Source: Nanobdellota archaeon
GTDB lineage: Archaea; Nanobdellota; Nanobdellia; Pacearchaeales; GW2011-AR1
NCBI GenBank assembly: GCA_038045945.1
Contig: JBBSXC010000003.1
Span: 21,859 to 85,858, forward strand
DNA: 64,000 bases
Direction: 5' to 3'
Part shown: piece after piece, positions 8,278-23,748 of the stretch
Numbering within the stretch: position 1 is the first letter of the stretch
Layout of the letters: each line of letters starts with the position of its first letter
The notes under the pieces: model-generated
What the model saw: the letters and a program-made list of their open reading frames with translations, nothing else
Told to the model about the DNA's origin: nothing
Database searches by the model: none
Position numbers and translations under genes: made by a program

Positions 8278-8624
8278 TTTCCACTCCTAAGATATCTTCT
8301 ACCGCCTTCTTCACAAGCGTCACCTAACTCCTTCTCAATATCCTCTCTTCCTTTAATCTTTGTTATGTTAAGAACCCAATCAGTAAGAACTTGTTTAGAA
8401 TTGCTACTATCTCTAAGTCCTGGATAAGATGTCCTTTTAACAGGGCTTTCATGAATATAGAATGAACTATTCCCTTCCCTATAAGGCCTATAAAAACCAA
8501 CACTTATTTCAACACCAACTACTTTTCCTTCAATAATAGGAAAAGCATAAAGAGCCCTAACCTCGTCACCCTCAACCAAACCATCAAGAGTTTTCAAAAC
8601 CTCATCCTTAGACTGAAAAGTCAT
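8274..8624 (-). CDS. Hypothetical protein (operon gene 8)
   Basis: 116 aa, MTFQ start, ATGA overlaps. Confidence 0.4.
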   Translation of the reverse strand: MTFQSKDEVLKTLDGLVEGDEVRALYAFPIIEGKVVGVEISVGFYRPYREGNSSFYIHESPVKRTSYPGLRDSSNSKQVLTDWVLNITKIKGREDIEKELGDACEEGGRRYLRSGK

Positions 8625-9025
8625 TTTGAGTCCTCCAAGATATCAAGTTTAGATAAGGATCTTTCTTTTTTTCTTAATGCTTGGATTTCACGTGTCTTTT
8701 CTTTGATTTTATCTTTAGACTCTTTTTTCCTTTCTAATTCTCGATATTTATGATTAATCTTTCTATAAAGATTTAAAAATTTATTATTGCTAAAACCAAC
8801 AATATCCTCATTAATACTTTCATCGTCTAAAGTTGCTTCAAATTTGTCACAATATAACCCATAAGACAACATTCTTACTTTTAAATTATTTATTTTAATT
8901 TCATACTCATAAGAATAAGGTCCTGCGGTTTCCTTAACCTGATCAGTAAGCAATATCTTGCTTGCAGGTACTTCAAGCAACTTTCCCGCCAACTTATCAA
9001 AACTAACCTTTCTAAAAGAAGTCAT
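8621..9025 (-). CDS. Hypothetical protein with a Lys/Glu-rich helical C-terminus (operon gene 7)
   Basis: 134 aa, MTSF start. The C-terminus YRELERKKESKDKIKEKTREIQALRKKERSL looks coiled-coil. Confidence 0.4.
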   Translation of the reverse strand: MTSFRKVSFDKLAGKLLEVPASKILLTDQVKETAGPYSYEYEIKINNLKVRMLSYGLYCDKFEATLDDESINEDIVGFSNNKFLNLYRKINHKYRELERKKESKDKIKEKTREIQALRKKERSLSKLDILEDSK

Positions 9026-9435
9026 TTCTCTTCCTCCTTAACATATTTTCCTTTGGCAAAATCAACATACCTAAATTCTATTAATCCGCGATTAACTTTA
9101 GAATAAACCTCAACACCGGCAACTAATAATTCATCATTACATGTAAGTTTTTCATAAAAATCTTTTATAGAATCTAAACCTTCCAGTTTAGGAATCTGAA
9201 CACGAACATAAGAATGCACTGGGATGTATAAACCGGCATTATTGATAACAAATGTAGGTCTTGAATTTTCATTAAGGCAAGCTTCAAGTTTAAAAGTTGT
9301 CCTATTATCAACAACCCATTCTCTACCAAAAGCAAAGTGGGGAGAAGACTGAACTTCGCAAGAATAAACCCCACCTTCAACAACAAAATATTCTAAATCC
9401 TTTTTGTTAGGAACAAAATTACTAGGAAACATCAT
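9022..9435 (-). CDS. Hypothetical protein (operon gene 6)
   Basis: 137 aa, predicted beta-rich, ATGA overlaps. Confidence 0.4.
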   Translation of the reverse strand: MMFPSNFVPNKKDLEYFVVEGGVYSCEVQSSPHFAFGREWVVDNRTTFKLEACLNENSRPTFVINNAGLYIPVHSYVRVQIPKLEGLDSIKDFYEKLTCNDELLVAGVEVYSKVNRGLIEFRYVDFAKGKYVKEEEK

Positions 9436-9935
9436 TTTCTTTCAACCTCATATTTTCTTCTAGCTTGGGAACCTTTAAACATACCATAAAGTCCACCCAT
9501 AGCTGAACCCATCCCTAAAAGAACAGAACTTAATCTTATGGCTTCATAAGGTAATTTTTGTTCATCAAAAGCTTTCATTTCTCCTTGATAATTTTGGTAA
9601 GCATCAGTGCTTGATAATCTTTCAAGTTCGCTATCAGCATAAGATAATGATTCATCAATACCTCTAGAAACCCCCTCGTAAAAGACTGATTTTCTTTTAG
9701 TCCTAAAACCTCTAGTGTCTCTTTCTTCTAACTGATTCTTAATCTCTAATATTTCATTCTTAGCTTCATTAGTAACATCATAAAGAAAAACTTCAGTAGG
9801 CTCAATAGGCTTTTCATCATCTAAATAACTCAAAGCAGGACTAGAAACGCCCAGACCAATGGCGCTCAAAACTATTCCTGCTAAAGAATTACGAGTAATA
9901 GTTTTAGGATGAAGATCCATATTATCTAAAATCAC
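9432..9935 (-). CDS. Membrane protein with two TM segments (operon gene 5)
   Basis: 167 aa. N-terminal TM GIVLSAIGLGVSSPALS and C-terminal TM LLGMGSAMGGLYGMF. Confidence 0.4.
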   Translation of the reverse strand: MILDNMDLHPKTITRNSLAGIVLSAIGLGVSSPALSYLDDEKPIEPTEVFLYDVTNEAKNEILEIKNQLEERDTRGFRTKRKSVFYEGVSRGIDESLSYADSELERLSSTDAYQNYQGEMKAFDEQKLPYEAIRLSSVLLGMGSAMGGLYGMFKGSQARRKYEVERK

Positions 9936-10362
9936 CCCTTAAGAGCATCTCAAGCATTTGTATAGTTACTCTTTCATCATTCAAAGCACGACCGCCTAAA
10001 GAAACAACATGGTTCCTAGCTCCACTAACTCCTGAGTTTAGAACAAATTTATCTTTGGGAACTCTTGACATTATATAATAATAACCATCGTTTAGTCCAT
10101 CGCAAAAATAAATATCTGCCTGAAGAATTTCATGAGTTAAAATGTCTCTGTCATCTATAGCATGGATCCTCTTTGGGTCGTACTTGCTATCTCTAACATC
10201 TTCATCAAATTCTGCCTTAAAATCATCCCAAGATTCTAAGCCATCAAAAGAAGTCTTAACGATTATTGCTCTAGTCTCTGGAATAGTAATTAATTCGCCA
10301 TACCTAGAAGAGAAATCACTAAAAGAATCCTCATAAATAACAATTTTAGGAGAAGAAGTCAT
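9922..10362 (-). CDS. Receiver-like (CheY-fold-like) protein, paralog A (operon gene 4)
   Basis: MTSSPKIVIYED (a beta1 strand ending in an acidic pair). QADIYFCDGLNDG sits where a receiver phospho-Asp would be. KFVLNSGVSG is a hydroxyl-bearing beta4. The conserved Lys is missing. This is a motif-level call only. Confidence 0.35.
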   Translation of the reverse strand: MTSSPKIVIYEDSFSDFSSRYGELITIPETRAIIVKTSFDGLESWDDFKAEFDEDVRDSKYDPKRIHAIDDRDILTHEILQADIYFCDGLNDGYYYIMSRVPKDKFVLNSGVSGARNHVVSLGGRALNDERVTIQMLEMLLRGDFR

Positions 10363-10772
10363 ATTTTTTCTCCCCTAAGTAATTTTTCTAGAAATCCTTG
10401 TGTTATCTCGATTCCTGAGTATGCTCTAACATTCTTTTTTTCAGCTAAGTATCGTATATCGTTATCTCCGGTGTTAAGAACTAATTTTTTATTATCGATC
10501 CTATCCATTAATGTTAATGCTTTTCCAACAAGTCCATCAGAAAAATAAATATCCGCTTGTTGGATATCATGAGAGTTTACTTCCTCGCGGCTAAGGGGAT
10601 TAAAAGTTGTTAGTGGATAATTTGCTTCAACAAATCTTCTAACCTTTGCAGGATCATCTAAGAATTCAACAAAGAAAACATTTACAGGCATAACTTTAAG
10701 AATTTCACCATAACGATCTCTCAATGAAGGCCATTCGTCTTCATAAATAACAATTTTTGGAGAAGAAGTCAT
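10359..10772 (-). CDS. Receiver-like protein, paralog B (operon gene 3), tandem duplicate of the previous gene
   Basis: Shares MTSSPKIVIYED, QADIYFSDGL and KLVLNTGDND with paralog A. Confidence 0.35.
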   Translation of the reverse strand: MTSSPKIVIYEDEWPSLRDRYGEILKVMPVNVFFVEFLDDPAKVRRFVEANYPLTTFNPLSREEVNSHDIQQADIYFSDGLVGKALTLMDRIDNKKLVLNTGDNDIRYLAEKKNVRAYSGIEITQGFLEKLLRGEKI

Positions 10773-10774
10773 AA

Positions 10775-11275
10775 CTAATCTTTCCTCCTTTCGTAAGAAG
10801 ACTCAATACCTAATTTGTGTCTGACCTGAGAAACAACACGCCTACCAACATCATAGCCAAGTGAAGCAAGATAAGAAGCAATATCCCTATCACTAAAAGG
10901 AGCATTACTATCCTCGCTATCAATGTAAGATTTAACTTCATCAAAGACGTATTGGGGAATCTTGTTTCTTTCTCTCTCACTACTAGCTAATATTTCAGCA
11001 TTCTTAACAACATCCTCAATACTACAAGAAATAGGAGGAGAAAGACGAAGATTTTGAAGAAAACCTGTATAGGGTTTACCACCACTACCGCCCAATAAAT
11101 CAAGTTGCAACTTAGAGCGATCATAAACATTAGATCTATCATAAACTTTAGGAAGATCAGCACCACGAGAATAATTAGACTTAGCACTAGGAGGCGGAGA
11201 TGGGCTCTTATAACCGGGTCTGCCAGGAATATTCAACCTTTTCTTACGACCGCGAAACTTACCAGGCTTAGCCAT
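10775..11275 (-). CDS. Gly/Pro/Ser-rich protein with a C-terminal HTH resembling sigma-70 region 4 (operon gene 2)
   Basis: The N-terminus is low complexity (PGRPGYKSPSPPPSAK). The C-terminus SDRDIASYLASLGYDVGRRVVSQVRHKLGI matches the helix-turn-helix pattern of sigma region 4.2 and LuxR-type proteins. Confidence 0.35.
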   Translation of the reverse strand: MAKPGKFRGRKKRLNIPGRPGYKSPSPPPSAKSNYSRGADLPKVYDRSNVYDRSKLQLDLLGGSGGKPYTGFLQNLRLSPPISCSIEDVVKNAEILASSERERNKIPQYVFDEVKSYIDSEDSNAPFSDRDIASYLASLGYDVGRRVVSQVRHKLGIESSYERRKD

Positions 11276-12576: not shown

Positions 12577-12629
12577 ATTTCATACTCCATTATTAACTTA
12601 GGAGTAGTGAATACGCTTGTAATATCTAA

Positions 12630-12657
12630 CTGATATTAATGATATGACTGATATTAA
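12630..12657. promoter_or_regulatory. Direct repeat 'ctgatattaa' x2 at 12630-12639 and 12648-12657, a candidate operator in the divergent promoter region
   Basis: Two exact 10-nt copies 8 nt apart sit between the operon start at 12576 and the AbrB-PhoU-like gene start at 12698. 'gttaaaaatagc' lies about 24 nt upstream of the 12698 ATG. Confidence 0.3.
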
Positions 12658-12697
12658 AAAGCGAAAGAGTTAAAAATAGCAAAATCTAGTAGTTTTT

Positions 12698-13615
12698 ATG
12701 GAAGAAAGGAAATTAATTAAGCAAGGTGGAGGTGGATTGACTATTTACCTGCCTAAGAAGTGGGTTGACAGAAGGGGGCTGAAGAACGGGGACAATGTTA
12801 GAGTCCTAGAAACAGACACCTCCCTAATAATTGAGGGTGACATTAATACCAAGAATGAAATAAAAATTGATATTAACGAATCAAACATTCACGACTTAAG
12901 ACACCTGCTTACTCATGCTTACCGTAGGGGTTTTAGCAAAATAATCATTAGTTATAACAAGCCGCAAGAAATAATTAAAGAAACAAAAAAAGTAACTAGT
13001 AACGTGCTTTTAGGATTCGAAGTAACAAGCATTGAACAAAAAAGCATCATTATAGAAAACATTTCTGAACCTAGTGAAGAAAAATTTGATGTAATGCTCC
13101 AAAAAGTATTCTTAGTAATATCAGAAACTAATGAAGTATTATTAAAAGATTTTACTAACGGGAAGTTTTCCAGCATTGACGAAATTAAAGAATTAAGAGA
13201 CCAAGGTGACAAATTCATAATATTCTGCAAAAGACTCATCACTAAGAACAGAAATGATAAAAACAGCCTCCTTGAATGGGAATTCATGACATTCCTTATG
13301 GACATCCACCACAATTACTATTATTTGTACCACTACGCTCATGATAACAAAATTAAGACTAACAAGAACTTCTCTCAATTAATAAAAGACTTAGGACTAT
13401 ACTTTAGTGATTTAAGAAGCGCTTACCTGAAGAGGGATGTATCAATAGTTCACAGAATTAATGAACAAAAAAAGAAATATCACTTTGGTGAAATAATTAA
13501 GCTATTAGAAAAATCGCGAGGGGAAGAAAACATTATCTATTCATACATTAGAGAAATATTTCGTTCAATCCAATTATCAACTAGTCCTATAATGTCAATG
13601 AGTTTGGGATACTAA
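12698..13615 (+). CDS. AbrB/SpoVT N-terminal domain fused to a helical PhoU-like domain (archaeal-type regulator), copy 1
   Basis: MEERKLIKQGGGGLTIYLPKKWVDRRGLKNGDNVRVLETD is a swapped-hairpin AbrB-type motif. The helical C-terminal domain is about 220 aa. Paralogous to 18265..19140. Confidence 0.5.
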   Translation: MEERKLIKQGGGGLTIYLPKKWVDRRGLKNGDNVRVLETDTSLIIEGDINTKNEIKIDINESNIHDLRHLLTHAYRRGFSKIIISYNKPQEIIKETKKVTSNVLLGFEVTSIEQKSIIIENISEPSEEKFDVMLQKVFLVISETNEVLLKDFTNGKFSSIDEIKELRDQGDKFIIFCKRLITKNRNDKNSLLEWEFMTFLMDIHHNYYYLYHYAHDNKIKTNKNFSQLIKDLGLYFSDLRSAYLKRDVSIVHRINEQKKKYHFGEIIKLLEKSRGEENIIYSYIREIFRSIQLSTSPIMSMSLGY

Positions 13616-13627
13616 ATTATTTGTTTC

Positions 13628-15187
13628 TTAATCTTTCTCTCTTCTTTCTTTTATCACTCTATCAGCAGTTCCTTCTCCCTGTTCCTTGTCAAGACTTTGT
13701 TTAGCGTCATAAAGATTTTTTGCTAATTCCCATCTGTCATGAACTCTATCGCCGGAAGTATGAAATTGTGGTCTCATCCAGTTATCAACATAGTTATATG
13801 TTATTTGAAGAACTTTACTCTCGATATCATCTGGGTCCTTTCCTTCTGCTGACATTTCAAGTAGTTTGGTTTTTACGCTTTCATAATCTGTTCTTCCTCC
13901 AGCTCTAACTACTGCTTCATAAGTTACGTCTGGGTTTAGATAAGCTGCAATTGCCGTTTTTTCATCACCTAATTTTTCAACCCACGCTCTAAAATCATAA
14001 GCTTCAGTTATTTCTCCTGCACCTAAATTCAATGCTTCAGCATCTAAGACTTTTTTGCCTTGAAGTGCAACACGAATGATTTTTTCTTTACGCTCATAAC
14101 TCAAATCTTTTTTATTTGAGTCTACTTTTTGAGCAAGACTATCCTTCTCTTGATTCAATGAAGTTACCTCGTTACGAATAGCAGCAAATCCTAAAGCTAC
14201 AGCAGTCAAAGCACCATTTATCAAGAACCATCTCTTAGCCCGTGCACGAGGCTTTGATGATTCATACCTCTTCATTGCTTTACTAAATTCTTCTTCAAGT
14301 GATTCTCCATCCTTGTATCTATCTGATGGGTCATAAGCTAAACACTTCCTCAAAAACGGTCTTAGAGGTTTAGGAATGTTTGATAATGAATCTTCAATCA
14401 TACCTTTATATTCCTGAAGACCAATATTTCTCATTGATTCAATTGGATCTTTAGAATTTTCTAACCTTTTTTCTGTAGGGTACTTACCACTAAGCAGCTT
14501 GACTGCTAGAGAACCAACTGACCAAACATCTGACTGAGTTGTTGGGTGAGAATTATCAGCAAATACTTCTGGAGCTCTGATAGCTACATGACCAATATTG
14601 TCTCTTGGGCTCTCACTCCAATCTTCTGGACTAACTGTTGTAGCAGTACCTGTATCGGCAATAACTAATCTTGTTCGACTACTGCCAGCCGGATCATAAG
14701 ACATTATGTTATCAGAATTTAAGTCTCCATGAACTCTAGAGAAATCTGTGTGTAACTCCTTTACTCCATGAACTATGTCCTCTAGCCCTAAAAGGATGGT
14801 TTCTGTTCTCTTGCTTCCTTTAAGGTAATGGTTCCAGTATTCTTCCCAATTCCTTAGAGTACTATGACATTGAGGCATCCAAATAAATGGTTTACCATCA
14901 AGGTCTTTGAATGGAACTGATGGAAGAACGTTACGTGCTGGAGCAAATCTTGATTCTCTAATTAAGACATCAGTCTCATTAATGTTTCTATGAACTCTTT
15001 GCTTTTTAGCAATTTCTGATGGAGAAAAAACCTTTATTGCCCCGTGCTGACCACTAATAACATCAAAAGCAGCATAGACTGCTCCATTACTTCCTCTCCC
15101 CAACTCTTGATAATTAACAAATCTGTCAGAACGAATAACATCCTCATGACCATCACTCCTCTTAGGGATACTACTACTAGAACTCAT
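13628..15187 (-). CDS. Membrane-spanning Hanks-type Ser/Thr protein kinase, copy 1
   Basis: Glycine loop and VAIK-equivalent GRGSNGAVYAAFD...AIKVF. Catalytic loop VHGDLNSDNIM. DFG-like IADTGTA. RAPEVF...DVWSVG matches the APE and DxWSxG subdomains. One TM helix WFLINGALTAVALGFAAI, then a C-terminal domain of about 180 aa. Confidence 0.7.
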   Translation of the reverse strand: MSSSSSIPKRSDGHEDVIRSDRFVNYQELGRGSNGAVYAAFDVISGQHGAIKVFSPSEIAKKQRVHRNINETDVLIRESRFAPARNVLPSVPFKDLDGKPFIWMPQCHSTLRNWEEYWNHYLKGSKRTETILLGLEDIVHGVKELHTDFSRVHGDLNSDNIMSYDPAGSSRTRLVIADTGTATTVSPEDWSESPRDNIGHVAIRAPEVFADNSHPTTQSDVWSVGSLAVKLLSGKYPTEKRLENSKDPIESMRNIGLQEYKGMIEDSLSNIPKPLRPFLRKCLAYDPSDRYKDGESLEEEFSKAMKRYESSKPRARAKRWFLINGALTAVALGFAAIRNEVTSLNQEKDSLAQKVDSNKKDLSYERKEKIIRVALQGKKVLDAEALNLGAGEITEAYDFRAWVEKLGDEKTAIAAYLNPDVTYEAVVRAGGRTDYESVKTKLLEMSAEGKDPDDIESKVLQITYNYVDNWMRPQFHTSGDRVHDRWELAKNLYDAKQSLDKEQGEGTADRVIKERREKD

Positions 15188-15342
15188 TCTAAAACCTCCA
15201 CTATTGGTTCATCAATAATATCAATAGAAAGCCTAACTATGGTGCCTGGTTTAAGTTTTCCCTCAATTGATCGAGGAATAACAATTATAGATTGAGAACC
15301 ATGCTTAGCAATACGCTTAGTAAGAGAAAATTTCTTAGTCAT
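15184..15342 (-). CDS. AbrB/MazE-like swapped-hairpin protein, 52 aa, translationally coupled to kinase 1
   Basis: MTKKFSLTKRIAKHGSQSIIVIPRSIEGKLKPGTIVRLSIDII. Its stop overlaps the kinase ATG (ATGA). 'ctttatatag' lies about 30 nt upstream of its ATG on the - strand. The 73 aa start in the track would run through that TATA element. Confidence 0.45.
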   Translation of the reverse strand: MTKKFSLTKRIAKHGSQSIIVIPRSIEGKLKPGTIVRLSIDIIDEPIVEVLE

Positions 15343-15459
15343 TTTATGTATAAAATACATAAAGAAAAAGACTATATAAAGCTTACGAAGTAGTGTAACT
15401 AACAAGTGGTAATAATGTCTAGAAAAAGCCTTAAATATAAGTAATCCCTAAAGATTACT

Positions 15460-15696
15460 ATGAAGACTATTACTATAAAGCTTCCTGAGAGAGAAGCTGA
15501 AGAGCTTGAATTATTTGTTAAGTCTAGCGGTTATCCTTCGAAATCGGAATTTATTAGACACTTAATAGTTGGTAAGATGGGTTTAGAAAGAAAAGAAAAG
15601 CTCGGATGGATGATGCTTGGCCAAAAAGCTTTAGCTAAAAGATGGAATAATCCTAAAGATGATAAGGTATGGAGCAGTTATATAAAAAATGATTAA
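15460..15696 (+). CDS. Ribbon-helix-helix (CopG-like) antitoxin
   Basis: ITIKLPEREAEELELFVKSSGYPSKSEFIRHLI is a typical RHH beta-alpha-alpha fold. Overlaps the downstream toxin gene by 8 nt. Confidence 0.55.
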   Translation: MKTITIKLPEREAEELELFVKSSGYPSKSEFIRHLIVGKMGLERKEKLGWMMLGQKALAKRWNNPKDDKVWSSYIKND

Positions 15697-16030
15697 TCAA
15701 GGAGACTTATTATTGGCGCCTTTTCCCTTTTCAGATCAGTCTGGAAGAAAAGTAAGGCCTGTAATTGTTATTAGTAATGACAAATATAACTCTCATCATG
15801 ATGATATAGTTGCAGTTGGTGTAACGTCTAACGTTTTCAAAAATCCATACTACATTGATTTCACCAATGCTGACTTAGACTTTGGTAATCTAGTAACTGT
15901 TTGCTCAATAATGGCTGATAGTCTAACACTGCTTGATAAAGAATTGATTACTAAAAGAATCGGTAAAGTTAACAAGAACAAAATGAAAACAGTTTTTGAT
16001 AAAGTTGTTGAAATAATAAAAACTAAATAA
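15689..16030 (+). CDS. MazF/PemK-family toxin (endoribonuclease-type)
   Basis: GDLLLAPFPFSDQSGRKVRPVIVIS matches the MazF/PemK N-terminal signature (GdivlvdfPfsd.sg.K.RPalVls). Confidence 0.55.
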   Translation: MINQGDLLLAPFPFSDQSGRKVRPVIVISNDKYNSHHDDIVAVGVTSNVFKNPYYIDFTNADLDFGNLVTVCSIMADSLTLLDKELITKRIGKVNKNKMKTVFDKVVEIIKTK

Positions 16031-16043
16031 ATTTAGTCATCTT

Positions 16044-16574
16044 TTAATGATCCCACTCGCCTTTTGATTCCTGAGTGGGTTTTTCTTTTATTATTTCTCT
16101 GAATCTTATTGCTCCTTCATCATAAATTGCTGATTCTCTTCTTTCAGCAATCTTATAGCTTGCATAACCTAGTAAAGTTAAAGCACCAAATGTTCCCATT
16201 AACGCTTGATGTAGGGGATTATTATCATGTTCTCTTCTATCATTTTTATAAGTAATTACTGATTCTTCTTTAGAAGAAAGATTTATCTCTTGGTCTAATT
16301 TCTTTATGGTTTCATCAAATTTGGCTGCTAATGGTTCTTGATAAATCTTTAATTCTTCTCTAACATTATTCGTTCCTAAAGACCAAAGCTGACTTTGAAG
16401 ACCATTTCTATAATTAACCAACAATCGATAATGATCATAACCCATGGTTTTAGGCCTGTCAGGGCCTCCAAATACCCAAAAACCAAGACTAGAAGCTAAA
16501 CCTAATGATGAAAGAGCAAAAGTAAGACTAGAACAACGCTTAATTCTCTTAACAGAATCTAACCGAGAAGTCAT
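16044..16574 (-). CDS. Membrane protein, unknown function
   Basis: 176 aa. TM helices LTFALSSLGLASSLGFWVF and LMGTFGALTLLGYASY. 4-nt overlap with the upstream gene. Confidence 0.4.
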   Translation of the reverse strand: MTSRLDSVKRIKRCSSLTFALSSLGLASSLGFWVFGGPDRPKTMGYDHYRLLVNYRNGLQSQLWSLGTNNVREELKIYQEPLAAKFDETIKKLDQEINLSSKEESVITYKNDRREHDNNPLHQALMGTFGALTLLGYASYKIAERRESAIYDEGAIRFREIIKEKPTQESKGEWDH

Positions 16575-16888
16575 TTCTTTTTCCTCTCACTCAAAAAAGA
16601 GTTAATTGCCTTAGACAAGTCTGGTTTGTGTGAATCTCTGCTTCTTAATGACTCATAATAATTATCATAAGAAGAAGTGTTACTTCTATAACTTCCACCC
16701 CACTCAAATAATCGCCAATTATCATTATCAACAACAACCAAGTCGGATCTGCCATCGCCATTAAAATCTAAAGAATAAACTTCGCGAGGATCATAATCAG
16801 AAGAATTATTGCCCAGAACGAAACCAGCAGATAAAACGCCTAAAGCACAAGCAGCAAATCCCATCTTTCTTAAATTTTCATCAGACAT
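16571..16888 (-). CDS. Small secreted protein with an FG-GAP-like repeat
   Basis: Signal-like N-terminus MGFAACALGVLSAGFVLG. DFNGDGRSDLVVVDNDNWRLFEW matches the FG-GAP/VCBS calcium-binding repeat. Confidence 0.45.
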   Translation of the reverse strand: MSDENLRKMGFAACALGVLSAGFVLGNNSSDYDPREVYSLDFNGDGRSDLVVVDNDNWRLFEWGGSYRSNTSSYDNYYESLRSRDSHKPDLSKAINSFLSERKKK

Positions 16889-16902: not shown

Positions 16903-18144
16903 TTACTTAAAATTATAAGTTAAGCCAAGCATACCTGAATAAGAATTTTTACCTTCTACAGGCATAGCAGCACGAAGGGCGAAGTCTAAACTAAGACTCT
17001 TATCAGCATTAGTGTAAATTTTAGCTCTTAAATCAGCATTATTAACACTCAAACTCTTATCATTAAGATCAGAATGCCTACCAACTTGTAAAACAACATC
17101 CTTAATCCATGAATCACTAACGCTACCTAAACCAACAGCAACATCGGAGTTAAAGTATCTGCTTGAAGGTTCATCATGATACTTAACGTCAAAACTAATG
17201 CTGCCTAAATTACCACTATTGCTAGCTGAAGCACCAAAGAAATCAATTCTAGAGTCGCCATCACCGATGCCGAAAGGGAAAGTAGCATCACCATCTCCAC
17301 CAAGGAATGGAGTAATGGAGTTGAAAAGAGTGTCCTGAGTACCAACAAGGAAAGCACCACCTGGAGCCTTCTTACCAAAACGAACCCTAGCCTCAAAACC
17401 CTTATTTTGGCCTTGAACAGTATCAAAAACTTTAGCTTGAGTGAGAACTTTGTAACCGTCTATAGCACTATTAGCATCAGACCACTTGTAAGAGAAAGCA
17501 GTGTTAAAAGTATCAGAATCATTAACTCTATGACCGCCAATACCAAAATCAATCTTATTATCATTAAATACTAAAGCATAACCAAAATTACCATCGCTAT
17601 CAGCAGTAACCTGAGGTTTAAACTTATCAACATTAAAACCGATAGCACTAGCAAGTCGGTTCTCAAAAGGTTTAGCATTATCCTGGAATTCAAAATTAAG
17701 GAAGTCAAGAGTACTATCTTTGAATGATTTCTCAAGCATAAGGCGACCATTATCCAAAGATGAATCTAAGAAAGACTGATAACCCGCATTAAAGCGAACA
17801 CCAGTATTAGACTCAGACTTACCAAAAGTTAAGTCAGCACCATAAATATTAGATCCGTTCTCGCCACGATAAGCAACCTTACCTAAATCACTAGAAAGAA
17901 TCTGGTGAGTTTGCAAACCACCATGACCATCAGCATAAGCTCTAGAAGTCAAAACTACAGAATCAACAGCCCTTTCTAAGTCAGACTTAGCTGGAGCATT
18001 ATCTCCGGCTAGAGCACTAGCTCCAAGAGCATAAGGCATCAAGGCAGCAGTTAAAGCTGCAACATTAGCCATTTTCCTTATACTTTTTCTTATTGTTTGT
18101 TTCATTGTATTTTTATCCATCATCTTATGGTCTGTCGTAACCAC
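16903..18144 (-). CDS. Secreted beta-strand-rich protein, possibly surface or porin-like
   Basis: Signal peptide MANVAALTAALMPYALGASALA. Alternating hydrophobic pattern throughout. C-terminus MLGLTYNFK. Confidence 0.45.
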   Translation of the reverse strand: MVTTDHKMMDKNTMKQTIRKSIRKMANVAALTAALMPYALGASALAGDNAPAKSDLERAVDSVVLTSRAYADGHGGLQTHQILSSDLGKVAYRGENGSNIYGADLTFGKSESNTGVRFNAGYQSFLDSSLDNGRLMLEKSFKDSTLDFLNFEFQDNAKPFENRLASAIGFNVDKFKPQVTADSDGNFGYALVFNDNKIDFGIGGHRVNDSDTFNTAFSYKWSDANSAIDGYKVLTQAKVFDTVQGQNKGFEARVRFGKKAPGGAFLVGTQDTLFNSITPFLGGDGDATFPFGIGDGDSRIDFFGASASNSGNLGSISFDVKYHDEPSSRYFNSDVAVGLGSVSDSWIKDVVLQVGRHSDLNDKSLSVNNADLRAKIYTNADKSLSLDFALRAAMPVEGKNSYSGMLGLTYNFK

Positions 18145-18264
18145 TTAATGATAACATAATAGCAGAAATCTTGGGATATAAACATTTTTATTAAACTATA
18201 TAAACTAGTATAAATCTATATATATTTAGGAAAAGCTTAAATATCGGTCTATATTAACAATCAA

Positions 18265-19140
18265 ATGAAACGTAAATTAGTACAACAAGGGGCTAGCACA
18301 ATGATGATTAGTCTACCTAGCAAGTGGGTTAAGGCAAATAACCTGATAAAGGGGAGCGAAGTGGACATGGATGAAAAGGGTAAAGAAATAGTTATTTCAA
18401 CTTCAATCAAGAAAGATAATGAAAAAAAGGCCGTAGTGGACCTATCAGGATATGATTTGCTAATAAACAGAGTTATAGTTTCTCTATACCTTAAGGGATA
18501 TGAGGAAGTAGAACTAATATTCAAAAACCGTGAAGAAATGAAGAAAGTGAAGAAGCATGTCCTTGAAGAATTGCTTGGTTTTGAAGTAATAAAACAGGAA
18601 CAAAATAAGATGATCATAAGAGACCTTACAGGTTTTGAAAAACAAAATATTGATGATGTGATAAAGAGGATATTCTTCGTTCTAGATGGGATGCTTGAAG
18701 ACTTAATTAATGCTGTAAACAAAAAAGAAAGCCTTGATGGAATAGTCGACCTTGATTCAAGCATTAATAAGCTGACACACTTTTCACTTAGAATACTTAA
18801 CTCTAAAGGATATTCTCAAGCAGATAAGACCGAAGAATTCTATGGTATGATCTCGATACTTGAACAAATTGGCGACTTAATAAAACAATTAGTGATGGAC
18901 TTAACAAAAGACAAACTTTCAACAAACCAACTAGAAGTAATCAGAAAAATTAGATTACTGTTAGATATTTTTTGCAAAATATTGTTTAAGTTTAATAAAG
19001 AAGAAGCTGTTAAATTCGCAAAACTATACCAAGAAATAAAAGATTCAATAAAGAATAAGAATAAGGTTGACTTAACGCTTAACCAGATTAACGAGGCGAT
19101 AATAAGAATGAATAACCACTTGCTGGTAACCGTGTTATAA
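18265..19140 (+). CDS. AbrB/SpoVT N-terminal domain fused to a PhoU-like helical domain, copy 2
   Basis: MKRKLVQQGASTMMISLPSKWVKANNLIKGSEVDMDEKGKEIVIS. Same architecture and gene context as 12698..13615. Confidence 0.5.
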   Translation: MKRKLVQQGASTMMISLPSKWVKANNLIKGSEVDMDEKGKEIVISTSIKKDNEKKAVVDLSGYDLLINRVIVSLYLKGYEEVELIFKNREEMKKVKKHVLEELLGFEVIKQEQNKMIIRDLTGFEKQNIDDVIKRIFFVLDGMLEDLINAVNKKESLDGIVDLDSSINKLTHFSLRILNSKGYSQADKTEEFYGMISILEQIGDLIKQLVMDLTKDKLSTNQLEVIRKIRLLLDIFCKILFKFNKEEAVKFAKLYQEIKDSIKNKNKVDLTLNQINEAIIRMNNHLLVTVL

Positions 19141-20730
19141 TTATATGTCTTGATGGTAGTAAGCAAGCCAAGCATCAACAAACTTTCTCCCATCTTTATC
19201 TAAAAACTTTCTGTAAGACTTGTAATCATTACTATTAGATTTAGACTTTACTTCTCTTAATTTACCAATTCCGGATCTTGAGACTACCATCGTATCTTCA
19301 ACGTCTACATTACCCTTACTATCTCGGCATTCTTCAATTGCCACTTCTAGTGATGCAGCAATTGTTGGGAAAAAGGGGCCAAATGCTGGATCATTCTTAT
19401 CAAAATCTTTATTGTTCAACTTGGCAAATAATCTTGATTGATACTCTGTTAATCTTTCGCCTCTAACATCTGAATTTGCTTGTGCGAAACTCTTAGCAAA
19501 ATAAGCAACAATTTTATCCTTTGATGCTAACTTAGCGTACCTGTCAAAACCTTGTTGAATCATGCCATCAGCAGTTTCATAGTCTAAATATTCCTGGCTA
19601 CTTTCTGAAACGAAAGATGTTTGTTTGCCTTCAAAAATCTCATCTTTTGGTTGATAAAGCATTCCCCTAACTTCTTGATCTGATAATTGTCTTCTTTCTG
19701 GAATTAATGAAGAAGCATAAATGCCAAAACCTATTAGTCCGCCAAGCCCTAATGCTCCTAAACCAAACCTTCTAGTATACTTTTTGAATTCATTCATTAC
19801 GTGAGACTTATCAAGTGTTCTTTCTAAGTTTTCTTTAAGGTCTGTACCGTTGCTAAACCTTTTATTTTCATCAATATTAAGTCCTTTTGAAAAGAACTTT
19901 CTTATCCTTCTGTCACTAATTTTCTCTTTAATTCTTCTATCTATGAATTCTTGTATAGCCTCTTTACTTGAACTCTTTATCTCATCATAACTTAAACCCT
20001 CTAGGGGGTATTCCCCAGTTTTTAACTTAAACATTAATGCTGTAGCACTATAGGTGTCTGTTCTCTTTGTAGGGTGACTCCCTTCATTAAAAAGTTCTGG
20101 GGCTCTAGTTAAAAACCATCCGATATTATCTCTTGGGGACTGAGTCATTCCCATACCTTCAACCGTTGATGCACCAAAATCATTAAGTAACAATCGTCCC
20201 TCTAAATTAATGGCAAAATTTCCCGGATGACCATCACCATGGACTCTGTTTAGTCCTGCCTTTGAGTGAACTTCGCTATATGCCGTTGCAATATCCCTCA
20301 CATAATGATCAAAATGGGGTTCTACCTTCTCCTCCCATGATGAAGGATTATAAGGATTATCTTTTGCTATAACCTCTAACATTTTATCTAAAAACATGTC
20401 GTAAGGGGGCATTACAATGAATCTTCTACCATTCTTATCGACTTCAAATCTTGTTGGAACAACTCTTGAACAAGCAGAAAGCTGAACAGCCTCATTATCC
20501 ATTGCTTTATTCTCATCAAGATTTCTCTTAGGCATCTTACCTAAAGCTTCATCCGTTGGAGCAAAAACTTTTATTGCAACATCCTGGCCCGTTATTCTGT
20601 CTTTACCCTTATAAACAATACCCCAAGAGCCCATACCGTAAATCTCTGCAGGATCAAAAGAATACCTATAAGAATCAATGATCCCAGGGTTCCCCCTTCT
20701 AGAGACAAAAGAATTATCCGTTTCAGTCAT
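19141..20730 (-). CDS. Membrane-spanning Hanks-type Ser/Thr protein kinase, copy 2
   Basis: GMGSWGIVYKGKD...VAIKVF. Catalytic loop VHGDGHPGNFAINL. DFG in LLLNDFGAS. TRAPELF...SHPT. TM helix FGLGALGLGGLIGFGIYASSLI. C-terminal domain of about 190 aa. Confidence 0.7.
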   Translation of the reverse strand: MTETDNSFVSRRGNPGIIDSYRYSFDPAEIYGMGSWGIVYKGKDRITGQDVAIKVFAPTDEALGKMPKRNLDENKAMDNEAVQLSACSRVVPTRFEVDKNGRRFIVMPPYDMFLDKMLEVIAKDNPYNPSSWEEKVEPHFDHYVRDIATAYSEVHSKAGLNRVHGDGHPGNFAINLEGRLLLNDFGASTVEGMGMTQSPRDNIGWFLTRAPELFNEGSHPTKRTDTYSATALMFKLKTGEYPLEGLSYDEIKSSSKEAIQEFIDRRIKEKISDRRIRKFFSKGLNIDENKRFSNGTDLKENLERTLDKSHVMNEFKKYTRRFGLGALGLGGLIGFGIYASSLIPERRQLSDQEVRGMLYQPKDEIFEGKQTSFVSESSQEYLDYETADGMIQQGFDRYAKLASKDKIVAYFAKSFAQANSDVRGERLTEYQSRLFAKLNNKDFDKNDPAFGPFFPTIAASLEVAIEECRDSKGNVDVEDTMVVSRSGIGKLREVKSKSNSNDYKSYRKFLDKDGRKFVDAWLAYYHQDI

Positions 20731-20903
20731 TTCTTTACCTCCTTTTCTTCAACCTTTATTTTGTCTTCTAAAACATCAATAGACAACTTAACAATCATAC
20801 CAGGCTTAAGGTGCTGCTCAAGAATTCTCGGAACAACAATGATTGCCTGGCTACCATGCTTAGCAATACGCTTAGTGATAATAAAGTTTTGTTTAGAAGT
20901 CAT
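20727..20903 (-). CDS. AbrB/MazE-like swapped-hairpin protein, 58 aa, translationally coupled to kinase 2. It is under the 60 aa track cutoff.
   Basis: Translated by hand as MTSKQNFIITKRIAKHGSQAIIVVPRILEQHLKPGMIVKLSIDVLEDKIKVEEKEVKK. Its stop overlaps the kinase ATG (ATGA). It is paralogous to 15184..15342. Confidence 0.45.
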   Translation of the reverse strand: MTSKQNFIITKRIAKHGSQAIIVVPRILEQHLKPGMIVKLSIDVLEDKIKVEEKEVKK

Positions 20904-21214
20904 TACTCATGCCACCCTTCCATTGATGAATCAAGAGATTTAGGAGAATACCTAAGAGAAAGAAGTCTAACAAGCGGCTCTAAAACTCTTTTTTCTTCAG
21001 GTTTAAAACCCTTAATAGAATGACTACCAGAAAAATGATCTGGGCGTACTAATGAATCCTCAAGGACACTTCTTAACAAATCGTTAAAAGAGGTATAATT
21101 TCTAACTTTCATATCGAAAACAGTTTCACCGCTCTGATTACCAAAAAGACTAATAAAAGTATAACTACAAATACCCTCTTCATCAGTTCTTTTAAGTGAA
21201 ACTTGGTAAGCCAT
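20903..21214 (-). CDS. Hypothetical protein, first gene of the kinase-2 operon
   Basis: Start chosen at MAYQVSLKRTDEEG..., about 104 aa. Its stop shares one nucleotide with the small AbrB-like start (TAATG). The longer 130 aa start in the track would run through an AT-rich promoter-like stretch. Confidence 0.3.
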   Translation of the reverse strand: MAYQVSLKRTDEEGICSYTFISLFGNQSGETVFDMKVRNYTSFNDLLRSVLEDSLVRPDHFSGSHSIKGFKPEEKRVLEPLVRLLSLRYSPKSLDSSMEGWHE

Positions 21215-21318
21215 ATTTTTATTATAAATTATACATCCTTTATGTATAGAAAATGGAAGCAAAAAGGGTATAAAAACCTTACTAAATGTAATCACTAAAG
21301 AGTTACACTAAAATGAGT

Positions 21319-21699
21319 TTAATTGTTTTCGTTAGGTGTTTCTTCGGCTAAGTATCCTTTTATCTCATCAATTATCGTCTTTAGTTCTTCTGTTTGTGGA
21401 ATTTTTCCTTCTTCAACTAAAACATTTCTCGCTTTCCTGATAATTTTACTATAAGGGGTTTTTGATAGTGAAGATTGTTCTGCTCCCATGCATAAAGTTG
21501 ACTTAAATAATAAATCTGGCGAATAAATACCTTTTTCTAGATTAAGTAATTGTCCTCTAGGGGAAACTGTTTCTTCTTTCATAACTTTGTAAACTGGGTC
21601 TAAAGCTTTACAAAAACCGCTATGAACATTATCAACCATTAATTCTGATACTTCTTCCCTAGCATTATGAGACTCGACACTTCCTTGATTTTCAACCAT
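21319..21699 (-). CDS. Hypothetical protein
   Basis: 126 aa. Its stop lies 8 nt inside the upstream FAD oxidase gene. Confidence 0.35.
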   Translation of the reverse strand: MVENQGSVESHNAREEVSELMVDNVHSGFCKALDPVYKVMKEETVSPRGQLLNLEKGIYSPDLLFKSTLCMGAEQSSLSKTPYSKIIRKARNVLVEEGKIPQTEELKTIIDEIKGYLAEETPNENN

Positions 21700-22969
21700 T
21701 TTTTATTTCCTCTCCACTTATAACTTTGTTAATAATTTCCTCTTCCTTCTTTTCCTCTTCTTCATCAATCTTCTTAATTATTTCAGCGATTGATTCCTTA
21801 GTTGGCAGTCCTAACTTTTCATCAAGGTCGACAATAACCCCTCTATTAAGTTTGTTGTTAGGATCGTAACGTTTCTTTATTCTTTGAGCTAATTTTTTGT
21901 CATTAATATCCATAAAATTCTTTTTTGTTTTACCAAAGCCGAAAGTTCCAGCAATGTTCCCTCTAATTTTTTTGACAAATAATCGCAAATCATTAATAGC
22001 TGAAAAGTCATTAGCTGAGAAAAGAGGGTTAACCAAACCGATGCCTAAATTAGCATGATAAGGAATTTTTTGTGAATCTAAATAATTAGCAACTTCTATT
22101 AGTCTGTCTAAGAAAACTCTAGGGTCTTCAACACGAACATAGCCAGAAAGAGAAGCATTCTTGTAAAGATCATCAATAATCCTTATCTTATTATTATAAA
22201 TATCTCCCTTAATGTCACCTCTATCCGACTCAAACTCTATAAACAAATGGTTAATTCTGCTTAAACCTAGTATTTCTGAAAGCATAGGTGAAATAAGATG
22301 AATCATGCTTACTTGGTTATCCATCTTAAGAGTTCTTGATAAATCAATGATTTTTAGTAAATCGGCAGAACGATAAACTGTTAATGACCTTTTAGGCTTA
22401 TCAATAACTTTTAACTTAGCAGAGTATATTATGCCTGTTATTCCTTCCATTCCTACAACGTTTGATGCGTCTATACGTCCAAGTTTTACAACTTTGCTAT
22501 GACCATCAATTATTTCTATTTCTAAAACATGATCAGCTACTCGCTTATACTTTGCACTTCTTGGGCCTGTCGCATTTGTTGCTATCATTCCGCCAATAGT
22601 ACAAATTGATCCTGACTGAGGATTAATAGGGAACTCCAAATTATACTTTGATAATTCTTGGTTTAAGTCATTAAGAATTATTCCAGCTTGAACATAAACA
22701 ACCTTTTTGTTAATATCAACATCTAAAATCTTGTCCATTTTTGACAAATCAACAACGACTGATCCCTCAGAAGGAACACATCCTCCAACAACTCCGCTCC
22801 CACCACCTCTAATGGTTATGTTATGATTCTCATGAACTATCTTGCGTAATTCTTCATCCGTTGTTGGAGTAAAAACGCTTATTGGATTATTACTTATTCC
22901 ACTTGCATCAGTTGAGTAAGCATTAATCGCGAGTTCCCTATCAATAACCTCTGACTTCTTATCTGTCAT
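21692..22969 (-). CDS. FAD-linked oxidase (PCMH-type FAD-binding domain), GlcD/D-lactate dehydrogenase-like
   Basis: NHNITIRGGGSGVVGGCVPSEGSVVVDLSKMDKILDVDINKKVVYVQAGIILNDL ... GSICTIGGMIATNATG is the FAD_binding_4 signature. Confidence 0.7.
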   Translation of the reverse strand: MTDKKSEVIDRELAINAYSTDASGISNNPISVFTPTTDEELRKIVHENHNITIRGGGSGVVGGCVPSEGSVVVDLSKMDKILDVDINKKVVYVQAGIILNDLNQELSKYNLEFPINPQSGSICTIGGMIATNATGPRSAKYKRVADHVLEIEIIDGHSKVVKLGRIDASNVVGMEGITGIIYSAKLKVIDKPKRSLTVYRSADLLKIIDLSRTLKMDNQVSMIHLISPMLSEILGLSRINHLFIEFESDRGDIKGDIYNNKIRIIDDLYKNASLSGYVRVEDPRVFLDRLIEVANYLDSQKIPYHANLGIGLVNPLFSANDFSAINDLRLFVKKIRGNIAGTFGFGKTKKNFMDINDKKLAQRIKKRYDPNNKLNRGVIVDLDEKLGLPTKESIAEIIKKIDEEEEKKEEEIINKVISGEEIKNG

Positions 22970-23748
22970 ATCTTAACCTCAATTTTACTAATGCCCAAAG
23001 CATGAGTTAACAACTGCGACATCTCTAAAACTTCTAAGCCAGAATTATTCTTATCATTATTCCTCTTCAAATGCTCATAATCCATAATGCCAATAGTTAC
23101 TAAACTATTAAAACCAGAATTTTTCACTTGGTTAAGACGTAAAATTGATGCCTCATCAGCTATTTGAGGATTAGTATAAGGCAAACCACCCGAACTTCCA
23201 GAATCAATAGTATTAACCTTAGAATTATGCAACTCCTTAACAGTATGGCCTAAAATACTCAAAAGTTTCCTTGGCTGCTCAATAATACTACTATACCTGC
23301 TCAAGTATGGAGAATCATGAAGTACTAAATCAAAACCAACATCCCGAAAAACCCTTCTTCCAAGCATTTTTTGAGTTATTGGAATGATTGCGTTAACAAC
23401 TTCCAAATCCCAATCCATCAAGAAATCCTTATAATCAATAAGTAAAGCCTTGTAACAAGAGGGACATGTAGTTATAATCTTGGTAACGCCTAAAGCTCGT
23501 AAGAGCTTTAAGTTTTTACGAGCTATCTTAATGAATTCTTTCTCAAAACCTAGTTCTATTGCTAATGAACCACAAATAAACGGTTTAGAAAGGCCCAAAT
23601 CCTTATCAGTAAGGAATGGTATCCCCAACTTCTTCATTATTAACTCATAATTATTCCTTATAGCCAAATTTTCATACTTTCCTAAAAGACAACCTGTATG
23701 AAGAAGAGTCTTACCTTTACCAATACCAAAAAACTCTTTTATACCCAT
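22966..23748 (-). CDS. Cysteine-rich CCG-domain Fe-S protein (GlcF/LutA-like partner of the FAD oxidase)
   Basis: CPSC motif in IITTCPSCYKAL with a second Cys cluster upstream. 4-nt overlap with the oxidase gene. Confidence 0.5.
   Translation of the reverse strand: MGIKEFFGIGKGKTLLHTGCLLGKYENLAIRNNYELIMKKLGIPFLTDKDLGLSKPFICGSLAIELGFEKEFIKIARKNLKLLRALGVTKIITTCPSCYKALLIDYKDFLMDWDLEVVNAIIPITQKMLGRRVFRDVGFDLVLHDSPYLSRYSSIIEQPRKLLSILGHTVKELHNSKVNTIDSGSSGGLPYTNPQIADEASILRLNQVKNSGFNSLVTIGIMDYEHLKRNNDKNNSGLEVLEMSQLLTHALGISKIEVKI

Follow-up and report, generated by a model that had tools for sequence, protein, structure and literature searches.

Two copies of a three-gene module

The stretch analysed here comprises 64,000 nucleotides of a Nanobdellota archaeon genome (GenBank assembly GCA_038045945.1, contig JBBSXC010000003.1, positions 21,859 to 85,858), hereafter the window, with a G+C content of about 34%. 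It carries two copies, numbered 1 and 2, of a module consisting of genes for a regulator (R), a protein kinase (K) and a small protein (S). In module 2, the subject of this study, the regulator R2 (18265-19140, forward strand; 291 residues), described from its open reading frame (ORF) and Pfam matches, begins with an AbrB (SpoVT/MazE-type) DNA-binding domain, followed by a middle domain and, at the C-terminus, by helices that resemble PhoU. It is convergent with K2 (19141-20730, reverse strand; 529 residues), a Hanks-type Ser/Thr kinase recognized by its ORF, Pfam match and motifs, and the stop codons of the two genes abut at 19140/19141. The gene ahead of K2, S2 (20727-20903, reverse strand), encodes 58 residues with the core ITKRIAKHGSQAIIVVPRILEQHLKPG and is backed by its ORF, a family of homologues and codon selection. 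It is preceded by U2 (20903-21214, reverse strand), an extra lineage-specific ORF of 103 residues with gene-like codon usage. S2 and K2 share an ATGA overlap, with a Shine-Dalgarno sequence for K2 (AAGGAGGT) inside S2, and are to judge by this overlap translationally coupled. U2 and S2 share one base (TAATG), and a Shine-Dalgarno-like GGGTGG precedes S2. Module 1 (12698-15342) contains R1 (12698-13615, forward), K1 (13628-15187, reverse) and S1 (15184-15342, reverse). An earlier note on this DNA had placed R2, K2, S2 and U2 at these positions, with abutting R2 and K2 stops, and in this it was accurate.

The same note took the two modules for a duplicated three-gene set and argued from the duplication that the genes form a functional unit. 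Pairwise protein alignment with BLASTP finds all three component pairs similar far beyond chance, with 28% identity for K1 and K2 (E 2e-36), 30% for R1 and R2 (E 4e-17) and 63% for S1 and S2 (E 2e-20), and the kinase motifs RVHGD, SPRDNIG and RAPE, singled out earlier as shared, are indeed present in both kinases. By tblastn, the window holds two copies of every component and no more. At the DNA level, the modules still resemble each other in two places, the S coding region (72% over 113 nucleotides) and the promoter/operator region (74% over 47 nucleotides), and nowhere else.

The idea of a simple duplication of the whole module did not hold up. K1 and K2 are nearer to kinases of other genomes (up to 38% identity) than to one another, and R2 is 51% identical to the R protein of locus L003 (labels L002-L080 denote related loci around S homologues) while sharing only ~21-30% with R1. 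In module 1, K and R have their closest relatives at the same loci; in module 2 the closest relatives belong to different ones, K2 grouping with short kinases (L028, L024, L063) and R2 with the partners of kinases of 600-780 residues (L003, L033, L009, L015). The C-terminal domains of K1 and K2 likewise fall into different subgroups. Because the nearest relatives of K2 and R2 come from different sets of loci, copy 2 is on these comparisons a mosaic, and the two copies are ancient, distinct subtypes. The functional unit itself fared better, on the strength of loci elsewhere.

Recurrence of the cassette in DPANN archaea

Homologues of S were collected from one genome per GTDB species, which gave 295 S-encoding stretches; locus counts use the best 79 of these, all from Woesearchaeota, Pacearchaeota or Nanoarchaeia-type genomes. 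An S copy was regarded as testable if at least 3.5 kb of sequence followed it (n = 64), and a kinase was counted as its partner if the kinase gene started no more than 1.3 kb from S. A kinase-family gene follows S in 39 of the 64 testable copies, directly adjacent in 32 and often with an ATGA overlap, and in 36 of these 39 loci a convergent R lies right behind the kinase. The Pfam Pkinase model is passed (E < 0.001) by 32 of 48 downstream proteins. Since the order S, kinase, convergent R recurs in 36/64 testable loci of different DPANN species, the view that the three genes form a functional unit is supported, and this recurrence is the strongest sequence evidence for it, stronger than the duplication within the window.

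The three components are conserved to very different degrees. In 34 S-K-R triplets, identity averages 68% in S, as against 20% in the kinase domain and 30% in R. The identities of K and R correlate with each other (Mantel r 0.55, p 0.0002, with species phylogeny uncorrected), and those of S correlate with neither. The K-R correlation fits specific partnerships between particular kinases and particular regulators.

S also heads operons that lack a membrane kinase and encode instead a GTPase, NMT1-type or other solute-binding proteins, short soluble kinases or unassigned proteins. In two loci (L074:6147-9043 and L077:863-3759), three tandem short genes encoding only a kinase domain (~310-330 residues) stand between S and R in place of the membrane kinase. 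Several of the GTDB records that bear the cassette (L006, L017-L019, L021, L026, L035, L052, L060, L067 and L072) carry the title 'uncultured Methanosarcinales archaeon', probably because the bins had been placed in the wrong taxon.

The small protein S

A search of 5.8 billion proteins returned S homologues in 111 clusters at 90% identity, all from DPANN-type archaea and 43-85 residues long, and a profile search of 1.84 billion representatives (50% identity) gave 158 hits, nearly all of them small stand-alone proteins. Residues K11, K15, H16, G17, Q19, P25, L32 and P34 are invariant, and T10, A14, E29, K33 and G35 nearly so. Across 85 copies, the entropy at the three codon positions is 0.68, 0.34 and 1.56 bits, a pattern that indicates purifying selection on the S protein. 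The 58-residue ORF, whose reality the earlier note had left conditional, is with these homologues and this codon signal a real gene, and S is on the sequence record a new and very strongly conserved family of small proteins with a conserved core of ~40-45 residues.

The note had also called S AbrB-like, a label that we do not retain. Searches of S1 and S2 against Pfam, NCBIfam and PADLOC gave no match; among the relatives of S, the AbrB-type family PF04014 produced weak hits in 6 of 111 only (best E 0.0039). An hhalign comparison of S with R aligned the two in the correct register, yet with E 0.04 and a probability of 1%, and profile searches of S and of a natural double version of it (P0168) against PDB sequences returned chance hits or nothing. 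The S monomer is modelled with a predicted local distance difference test score (pLDDT) of 78.7 as an open hairpin-helix-strand unit, for which Foldseek found three hits only, all weak, namely two designed homodimeric RIFT proteins (Ph1; 8jvr and 8jvq) and MazE. P0168 (101 residues) is a natural, clean tandem duplication of the S unit, and its single-sequence model (pLDDT 83.5, predicted template modelling score 0.72) shows in each half three main strands together with one short helix. In S, the conserved core stops after the third strand, lacking the fourth strand of AbrB, and does not make up the eight-stranded swapped-hairpin barrel of that family; in predicted models, S superposes on a RIFT barrel with pseudo-twofold symmetry. 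Given a core without the AbrB fourth strand and three strands in each half of P0168, S is best described, as far as models allow, as half of a six-stranded cradle-loop (RIFT-type) barrel, akin to the AbrB swapped-hairpin family and outside it. Domains that function as homodimers typically undergo tandem duplication, and from the fusion in P0168 we infer that S itself would homodimerise.

Fusions of the S unit are rare, and two further ones were noticed among the S relatives. P0224 (169 residues) has an S unit followed by a region ending in ...ALQYQF, and in P0286 (136 residues) the second half of S comes after an N-terminus that is rich in Cys and ferredoxin-like; both may be frameshift or assembly artefacts.

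The kinase

Both kinases pass the cut-off of Pfam Pkinase PF00069 (31.7 bits), K2 with 55 bits and K1 with 87.1 bits. The K2 signature reads GMGSWG at 32, VAIK at 51, HGDGHPGN at 164 (HGD..N, 164-171), DFG at 184, SPRDNIG at 198 and APE at 210, and that of K1 reads GRGSNG at 30, GAIK at 49, HGDLNSDN at 153, DTG at 178 and APE at 205. Among 34 cassette kinases, the residues equivalent to H164, D166, N171 and D184 are conserved in 28, 31, 33 and 31, respectively. The two window kinases have, by these motifs, a complete catalytic signature and are of the non-RD class, since HGD replaces HRD.

Each kinase has one Gly-rich hydrophobic segment (~322-343 in K2, ~319-340 in K1) preceded by a basic patch (KKYTRR in K2, KPRARAKR in K1). 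The Kyte-Doolittle maximum over 19 residues is 1.52-1.57, just below the usual 1.6, and many relatives exceed 1.6 at the same position. The kinase domain is probably cytoplasmic and the variable C-terminal domain, ~180 residues long in each kinase and without a match to any known family, probably extracytoplasmic. In K2 this latter domain has 185 residues and recurs in no other cassette kinases than one subgroup of 515-580 residues. A word-indexed protein search with the K2 C-terminal segment (184 residues, 19144-19695) gave zero hits and missed even the parent protein, a known member of the collection, so negative results of that search with short divergent queries call for caution. With E values of 1e-17 to 2e-27, the kinases also match defence-related PADLOC models for kinases (PD-T4-6, mad6 and MkoA), and they match the NCBIfam model MAD6 with 45-57 bits (E 1e-15; cut-off 460).

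Promoters and paired boxes of the S operons

The promoter of the U2-S2-K2 operon has a B recognition element (BRE) and TATA box at 21268-21282 (reverse strand; GTAAGGTTTTTATAC), which align with GTAAGCTTTATATAG of module 1, whose TATA box lies at 15372-15386 (reverse). Between the TATA box and the U2 ATG lies a candidate S operator of two boxes, 11 bp centre to centre (TCTATACATAAAGGATGTATAA; 21229-21250, reverse). Its counterpart in module 1, TTATGTAT-TTT-ATACATAA (15345-15365, reverse), is a perfect 8-bp inverted repeat directly ahead of the S1 ATG. When the upstream regions of S genes are aligned, the BRE/TATA element (GAAAG-TTTATAAA) is followed by two copies of TATACATA or of its complement TATGTATA.

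To count such boxes, a pair was defined as two 6-mer cores (ATACAT/ATGTAT) within 20 nucleotides, and the search space was 776 kb of related loci together with the 64-kb window, ~840 kb in all. The related loci contain 55 pairs, where 4.5 are expected. Of these, 36 lie less than 200 nucleotides upstream of S, and all 36 have a gap of 5 nucleotides, which is 11 bp centre to centre; another 15 pairs are found upstream of S at a distance of 0.2-2.7 kb, and downstream of S there are none. The window has just two pairs, one per module. All four combinations of box orientation occur, direct and inverted ones about equally often, and each box is near-palindromic with the consensus TTATACATA. We considered the alternative that the paired boxes form an RNA hairpin and rejected it in favour of recognition at the DNA level, as every orientation occurs and direct pairs are about as common as inverted ones. 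The boxes sit at the expected start of transcription, and their shape fits a symmetric dimer bound to each box. The pair is found with 24 of 37 kinase operons and with 13 of 24 operons without a kinase; as it occurs with and without the kinase, S is the only gene common to the boxed operons.

A looser palindrome-like element lies 5' of the BRE/TATA in module 2 (TGTAACTCTTTAGTGATTACA; 21287-21307, reverse), with a module 1 counterpart at 15394-15412 (reverse). This TGTAAC...TTACA-like palindrome around a ACTTTAAAGT core recurs in many S promoters, its conservation being weak at ~0.5 bit per column; by a simple rule, both arms are present in 19 of 52 promoters.

The regulator R, its promoter words and the divergent genes

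The earlier name for R, AbrB-PhoU-like, is apt at the N-terminus and less so at the other end. R2 passes the cut-off of PF04014 (MazE_antitoxin) with 25.3 bits against 24.7, R1 reaches only 16.9 bits, and the family is found at the N-terminus of 33 of 33 R relatives (E < 0.05; best E 7.8e-9). The likeness to PhoU is weak: PF01895 gives 16 bits for R2 (cut-off 23.5) and no match for R1, and 9 of 33 relatives match it (best E 1.4e-7). Relatives of R are named 'phosphate uptake regulator' by some sources and pipelines. A profile search with R against PDB sequences returned helical-bundle noise only.

The BRE/TATA of R2 (GAAAAGCTTAAATATC; 18230-18245, forward), read from the sequence, lies ~25 nucleotides ahead of the ATG, a spacing that implies a leaderless or near-leaderless R2 mRNA; a GAAAG-TTTAWATA element likewise aligns upstream of R genes at other loci. 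Just 5' of this TATA box is a candidate R2 operator made of repeated CTATATA/TAGTATA words (ATTAAACTATATAAACTAGTATAAATCTATATATATT; 18190-18228, forward), and R1 has a candidate operator of TGATAT/TAATATT repeats (TAATATCTAACTGATATTAATGATATGACTGATATTAAAA; 12620-12659, forward). We surveyed such words upstream of R genes in 40 loci, falling into two classes by the sequence of the AbrB domain. In the 'QGxGG-xTxYLPKK' class (12 loci), which includes R1, at least three TGATAT/TAATATT words are present in 11/12 and the other words never (CTATATA/TAGTATA in 0/12). In the 'QGxAT..SLP[SA]K' class (28 loci), which includes R2, at least two CTATATA/TAGTATA words are present in 17/28, and three or more TGATAT-type words in 0/28. 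A small R subclass has GAATATATTC repeats upstream. Within the window, each word type clusters in a single place, ahead of the R gene of its own class, at 12620-12659 for R1 and 18190-18228 for R2 (the R2 type counted at three or more words). No R-type words were found in the S promoters of the 64-kb window, and no S-type pair upstream of its R genes or of the genes divergent from them. As the repeats covary with the DNA-binding domain of R, even within one genome, there is good indirect evidence that R would bind its own divergent promoter region.

The R2 operator lies in the intergenic region shared with Y2 (16903-18105, reverse; gene call), a divergent gene for a 400-residue protein with a signal-peptide-like N-terminus. 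Y2 is a likely target of the R2 operator and is followed by gene calls for two small membrane or secreted ORFs (16044-16888). In most loci, the gene behind R is divergent from it and has an extracytoplasmic product, either a Peripla_BP_6 lipoprotein or an unfamiliar secreted protein, the window belonging to the latter kind. Neither Y2 nor the 432-residue protein that follows R in module 1 belongs to a Pfam family, and a comparison of these two with their counterparts at other loci gave no shared family and one weak link, between Y2 and secreted proteins behind R elsewhere.

Proteins encoded divergently from R (Y2; L003:9379-10554, L012:6765-8000, L005:9231-10292, L043:9309-10385, L028:8676-9866) have signal-peptide-like N-termini, and many end in an aromatic residue (...GLQGWF, ...FFELRF, ...LTYNFK), recalling the C-terminus of bacterial outer-membrane beta-barrels; they match no Pfam family. 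Such an outer-membrane-type signature is odd for archaea without an outer membrane. In five loci (L017:5028-7255, L018:9725-11934, L042:3909-6175, L064:3046-5415 and L069), R is followed by pairs of genes for Peripla_BP_6 (LivJ-type) lipoprotein solute-binding proteins, which suggests that solute uptake is, for some cassettes, either the process controlled or the cue.

The extra ORF and the neighbouring genes

The ORF upstream of S2 had been put at 104 residues; the 104 codons include the stop and encode 103 residues, and its position and the TAATG overlap were as described. Its inclusion as an extra part of the module is another matter. No relative of U2 was found in the 79 related loci or in the metagenome collection. 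Codon usage scores 0.38 bit per codon in frame, and -0.5 and -1.7 when the frame is shifted. The promoter ahead of U2 and the S1 promoter are homologous, in the 47-nucleotide segment noted above, and U2 therefore sits within the operon, between the ancestral promoter and S2. The same slot between promoter and S holds ORFs in 15 other loci, on the same strand as S and mutually unrelated. On this evidence U2 is probably a real orphan gene and not a conserved part of the module. That it might be a spurious ORF was rejected on account of its gene-like codon usage and its position inside the transcription unit. The 130-residue version from a GTG at 21295, proposed by gene callers, was set aside too, for it would start upstream of the TATA box, within a conserved promoter element.

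Upstream of module 2 (21319-23748, reverse strand) lie genes for a 126-residue protein with relatives at L010 and L055, an FAD_binding_4 protein (425 residues) and a CCG-domain protein (260 residues). The latter two form a glycolate-oxidase-like pair, and the run ends 100 nucleotides short of the module 2 promoter. Between the modules, divergent from S1, is a type II pair (15460-16030, forward) of a ribbon-helix-helix (RHH) antitoxin (78 residues) and a PemK/MazF toxin (113 residues) with an 8-nucleotide overlap. A run of ~12 small genes (116-193 residues; 6391-11275, reverse) with 4-nucleotide overlaps, most of which start MTS or MTF, lies downstream of the 432-residue gene divergent from R1. 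The only clear paralogues in the run are those at 9922-10362 and 10359-10772, nearest to that gene; one member has a Fis-type HTH_8 domain, the 166-residue gene at 10775-11275 matches a sigma-54 DNA-binding domain, and the rest match nothing. The window DNA is also found as an identical match within a 445-kb contig from Hainich groundwater (ENA ERZ1292629).

A model of the cassette and its rivals

Taken together, the layout, recurrence and promoter data suggest that module 2 is one copy of a widespread DPANN signalling cassette in which a receptor kinase acts on two dedicated DNA-binding regulators, a reading to which we give about an even chance, with both phosphorylation and DNA binding deduced rather than observed. 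According to this model, S would dimerise to a six-stranded cradle-loop (RIFT-type) barrel, and the dimer would sit on each of the pseudo-palindromic TATACATA boxes and regulate its own S-kinase operon, most likely as a repressor. R would bind its class-specific repeats and control its own gene as well as the adjacent genes for surface proteins. With its variable C-terminal domain, the kinase would sense a cue from outside or from the envelope and phosphorylate R, its co-evolving partner, and perhaps S too, and DNA binding would be altered as a result. With two copies and different R specificities, this genome may possess two insulated channels.

Several points weigh against the signalling cassette as just drawn. 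The functional links in it are all drawn from co-occurrence and covariation, and the K-R correlation may carry an uncorrected share of species phylogeny. The transmembrane prediction for K is borderline, and residues 346-529 of K2 match no Pfam or NCBIfam family and have no recognizable sensor fold. Operons with S and no kinase suggest that S may be a general operon regulator rather than a partner of the kinase, and the looser element upstream of the BRE/TATA means that probably at least one further factor acts at S promoters. A factor encoded elsewhere could bind the TATACATA boxes; moreover, the restriction of the boxes to S operons was seen in loci that had been selected for S, about 840 kb in total.

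The last of these points leads to the most serious rival, in which S is an accessory of the kinase (its substrate, an adaptor, or a subunit that activates or inhibits it) and another conserved DPANN factor binds the boxes, the S operons being the regulon of that factor. Most loci couple the translation of S with that of the kinase, the near-invariant T10 and the commonly conserved S18 could accept phosphate, no significant sequence match links S to any DNA-binding family, PhS018, the single-chain cradle-loop barrel with which it is compared, itself has no known function, and the further conserved promoter element implies that other factors act there. Nevertheless, we hold this rival to be unlikely: S accompanies the boxes in 13 of the 24 kinase-less operons, so its role cannot be specific to the kinase; its invariant surface carries many Lys, Arg and His residues (K11, K15, H16, R26, K33) in the register of the DNA-contact residues of AbrB; and the extreme conservation of S mirrors that of the boxes. 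A toxin-antitoxin-like or anti-virus defence module, with S as a small autoregulating antitoxin and the kinase as toxic effector in the style of HipBA or PD-T4-6, would account for the small first gene, the 4-nucleotide overlap and the operator at the promoter, all as in type II modules, for several copies per genome and for highly divergent kinases that match PADLOC PD-T4-6, mad6 and MkoA and NCBIfam MAD6; a true RHH-MazF pair even stands between the modules. Yet the PADLOC and NCBIfam scores amount to generic kinase similarity (57 for MAD6 against a cut-off of 460; PADLOC lists no cut-offs), and S, R, U2 and Y have no PADLOC hit. The kinases are predicted to be membrane-anchored with a variable outer domain, unlike known kinase toxins, and the 'antitoxin' is far more conserved than the 'toxin' (68% versus 20%), the opposite of what is usual. 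S also stands ahead of harmless genes (solute-binding proteins, a GTPase), and the co-evolving R and the surface-protein genes belong to the unit. A defence role of this kind is in our estimate decidedly improbable.

Least credible is mere adjacency without shared function, in which S would be a common small nucleoid or transcription protein, K and R its chance neighbours and the two copies an ordinary ancient segmental duplication. That S heads many different operons, that K1 and K2 as well as R1 and R2 are very divergent and that copy 2 is a mosaic would all be compatible with it. The recurrence of order and orientation in 36/64 loci of different species at a kinase identity of only ~20%, the conserved stop-start overlaps and the covariation of K and R leave such adjacency strongly disfavoured, and we would be very surprised to see it prevail.

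Relation to known systems

The signalling cassette is, by analogy, akin to known control of cradle-loop/AbrB-type regulators by Hanks kinases, and the nearest precedent comes from Bacillus subtilis, whose Hanks kinases PrkC, PrkD and YabT phosphorylate AbrB and so inhibit its DNA binding (Kobir et al. 2014, as summarized in PMC4837961). Going by that summary, both systems would pair a membrane-anchored Hanks kinase with a small cradle-loop or AbrB-type regulator, phosphorylation in the archaeal one being presumed. In B. subtilis the genes are unlinked, whereas the cassette has the kinase and its regulators as a conserved linked unit; it has two regulators, S and R, each with a candidate operator of its own; and S is predicted to be six-stranded and RIFT-type, where B. 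subtilis AbrB is an eight-stranded swapped-hairpin barrel.

S shares with cradle-loop barrels a beta-beta-alpha-beta unit and the pattern G-x-x-I-x-V-P...L-K-P-G. Single-chain RIFT and double-psi barrels are thought to descend from a single unit by duplication and fusion. The best structural matches of the S monomer model are Ph1 (8jvr/8jvq; PMC11258233) and MazE. PhS018 of Pyrococcus horikoshii (PDB 2glw), an AbrB relative and predicted DNA binder, has been described as an evolutionary intermediate (PMC4333400); in PhS018 one chain holds both halves of the barrel, whereas S, with ~40-45 residues, amounts to one half and would have to dimerise. Sequence similarity between the two is not detectable, and PhS018 has no known function or genomic partner.

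R has the length and architecture of the archaeal AbrB-PhoU 'phosphate uptake regulator' (PF04014 + PF01895). In contrast to that type, the PhoU score of R2 is below the cut-off, no pst or phosphate-transport genes are linked here, and R is convergent with a Hanks kinase and divergent from surface-protein genes. We know of no studied member of R's AbrB-PhoU subfamily. Bacterial PhoU modulates the sensor kinase PhoR, and the cassette would resemble that pair in tying a PhoU-type helical protein to a membrane sensor kinase, an R-kinase interaction being suggested by their co-evolution; it differs in that the kinase is a Hanks-type Ser/Thr kinase and no histidine kinase, and in that R has a DNA-binding domain of its own. 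With type II modules (MazEF, HipBA) and PD-T4-6, the cassette has in common a small first gene that overlaps a larger second one, paired promoter boxes and several copies per genome. It departs from them in having a kinase of the Hanks family with a predicted membrane anchor and outer domain, a small protein far more conserved than the kinase and also at the head of non-toxin operons, and R and surface proteins as further members. Among archaea, Hanks-type control of the regulators of surface structures is represented by the Sulfolobus kinases ArnC and ArnD with ArnA and ArnB and by phosphorylated regulators such as AbfR1. The regulators there are FHA/vWA and Lrs14 proteins, no small-barrel cassette is involved, and the lineage is Crenarchaeota.

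Our literature searches found no paper that joins DPANN, AbrB and kinase, and no cassette of this kind in the literature on DPANN signalling. Cassette, S family and operators alike seem to be new to the literature.

Implications

A bolder version of the model can be put forward, tentatively and as rather less probable than the signalling cassette as such. S would be a natural homodimeric RIFT half-barrel, a survivor of the single-unit type of ancestor, and a sequence-specific transcription factor acting on 8-bp TATACATA boxes, two of them spaced by one helical turn, that are conserved across a whole archaeal radiation; with the co-evolving pair of Hanks kinase and AbrB-PhoU protein, it would make up the chief device for transcriptional signalling in Woesearchaeota/Pacearchaeota-type DPANN, possibly one that senses the host or the surroundings. 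According to a 2024 study, every modern RIFT and double-psi barrel is single-chain (PMC11258233), and a dimeric single-unit S would, if true, be a counter-example to that statement. Confirmation that S is half of a RIFT barrel would also bear on the evolution of the oldest beta-barrel folds.

Most DPANN archaea are uncultured, their genomes are tiny, and their gene regulation and host sensing are, to our knowledge, almost unexplored. The cassette, present in multiple copies and across hundreds of DPANN species, supplies concrete and testable regulatory circuits for these organisms. The predicted operators would let regulons be mapped directly in metagenome-assembled genomes, and the covariation between R class and operator may serve as a natural specificity code for AbrB-type domains.

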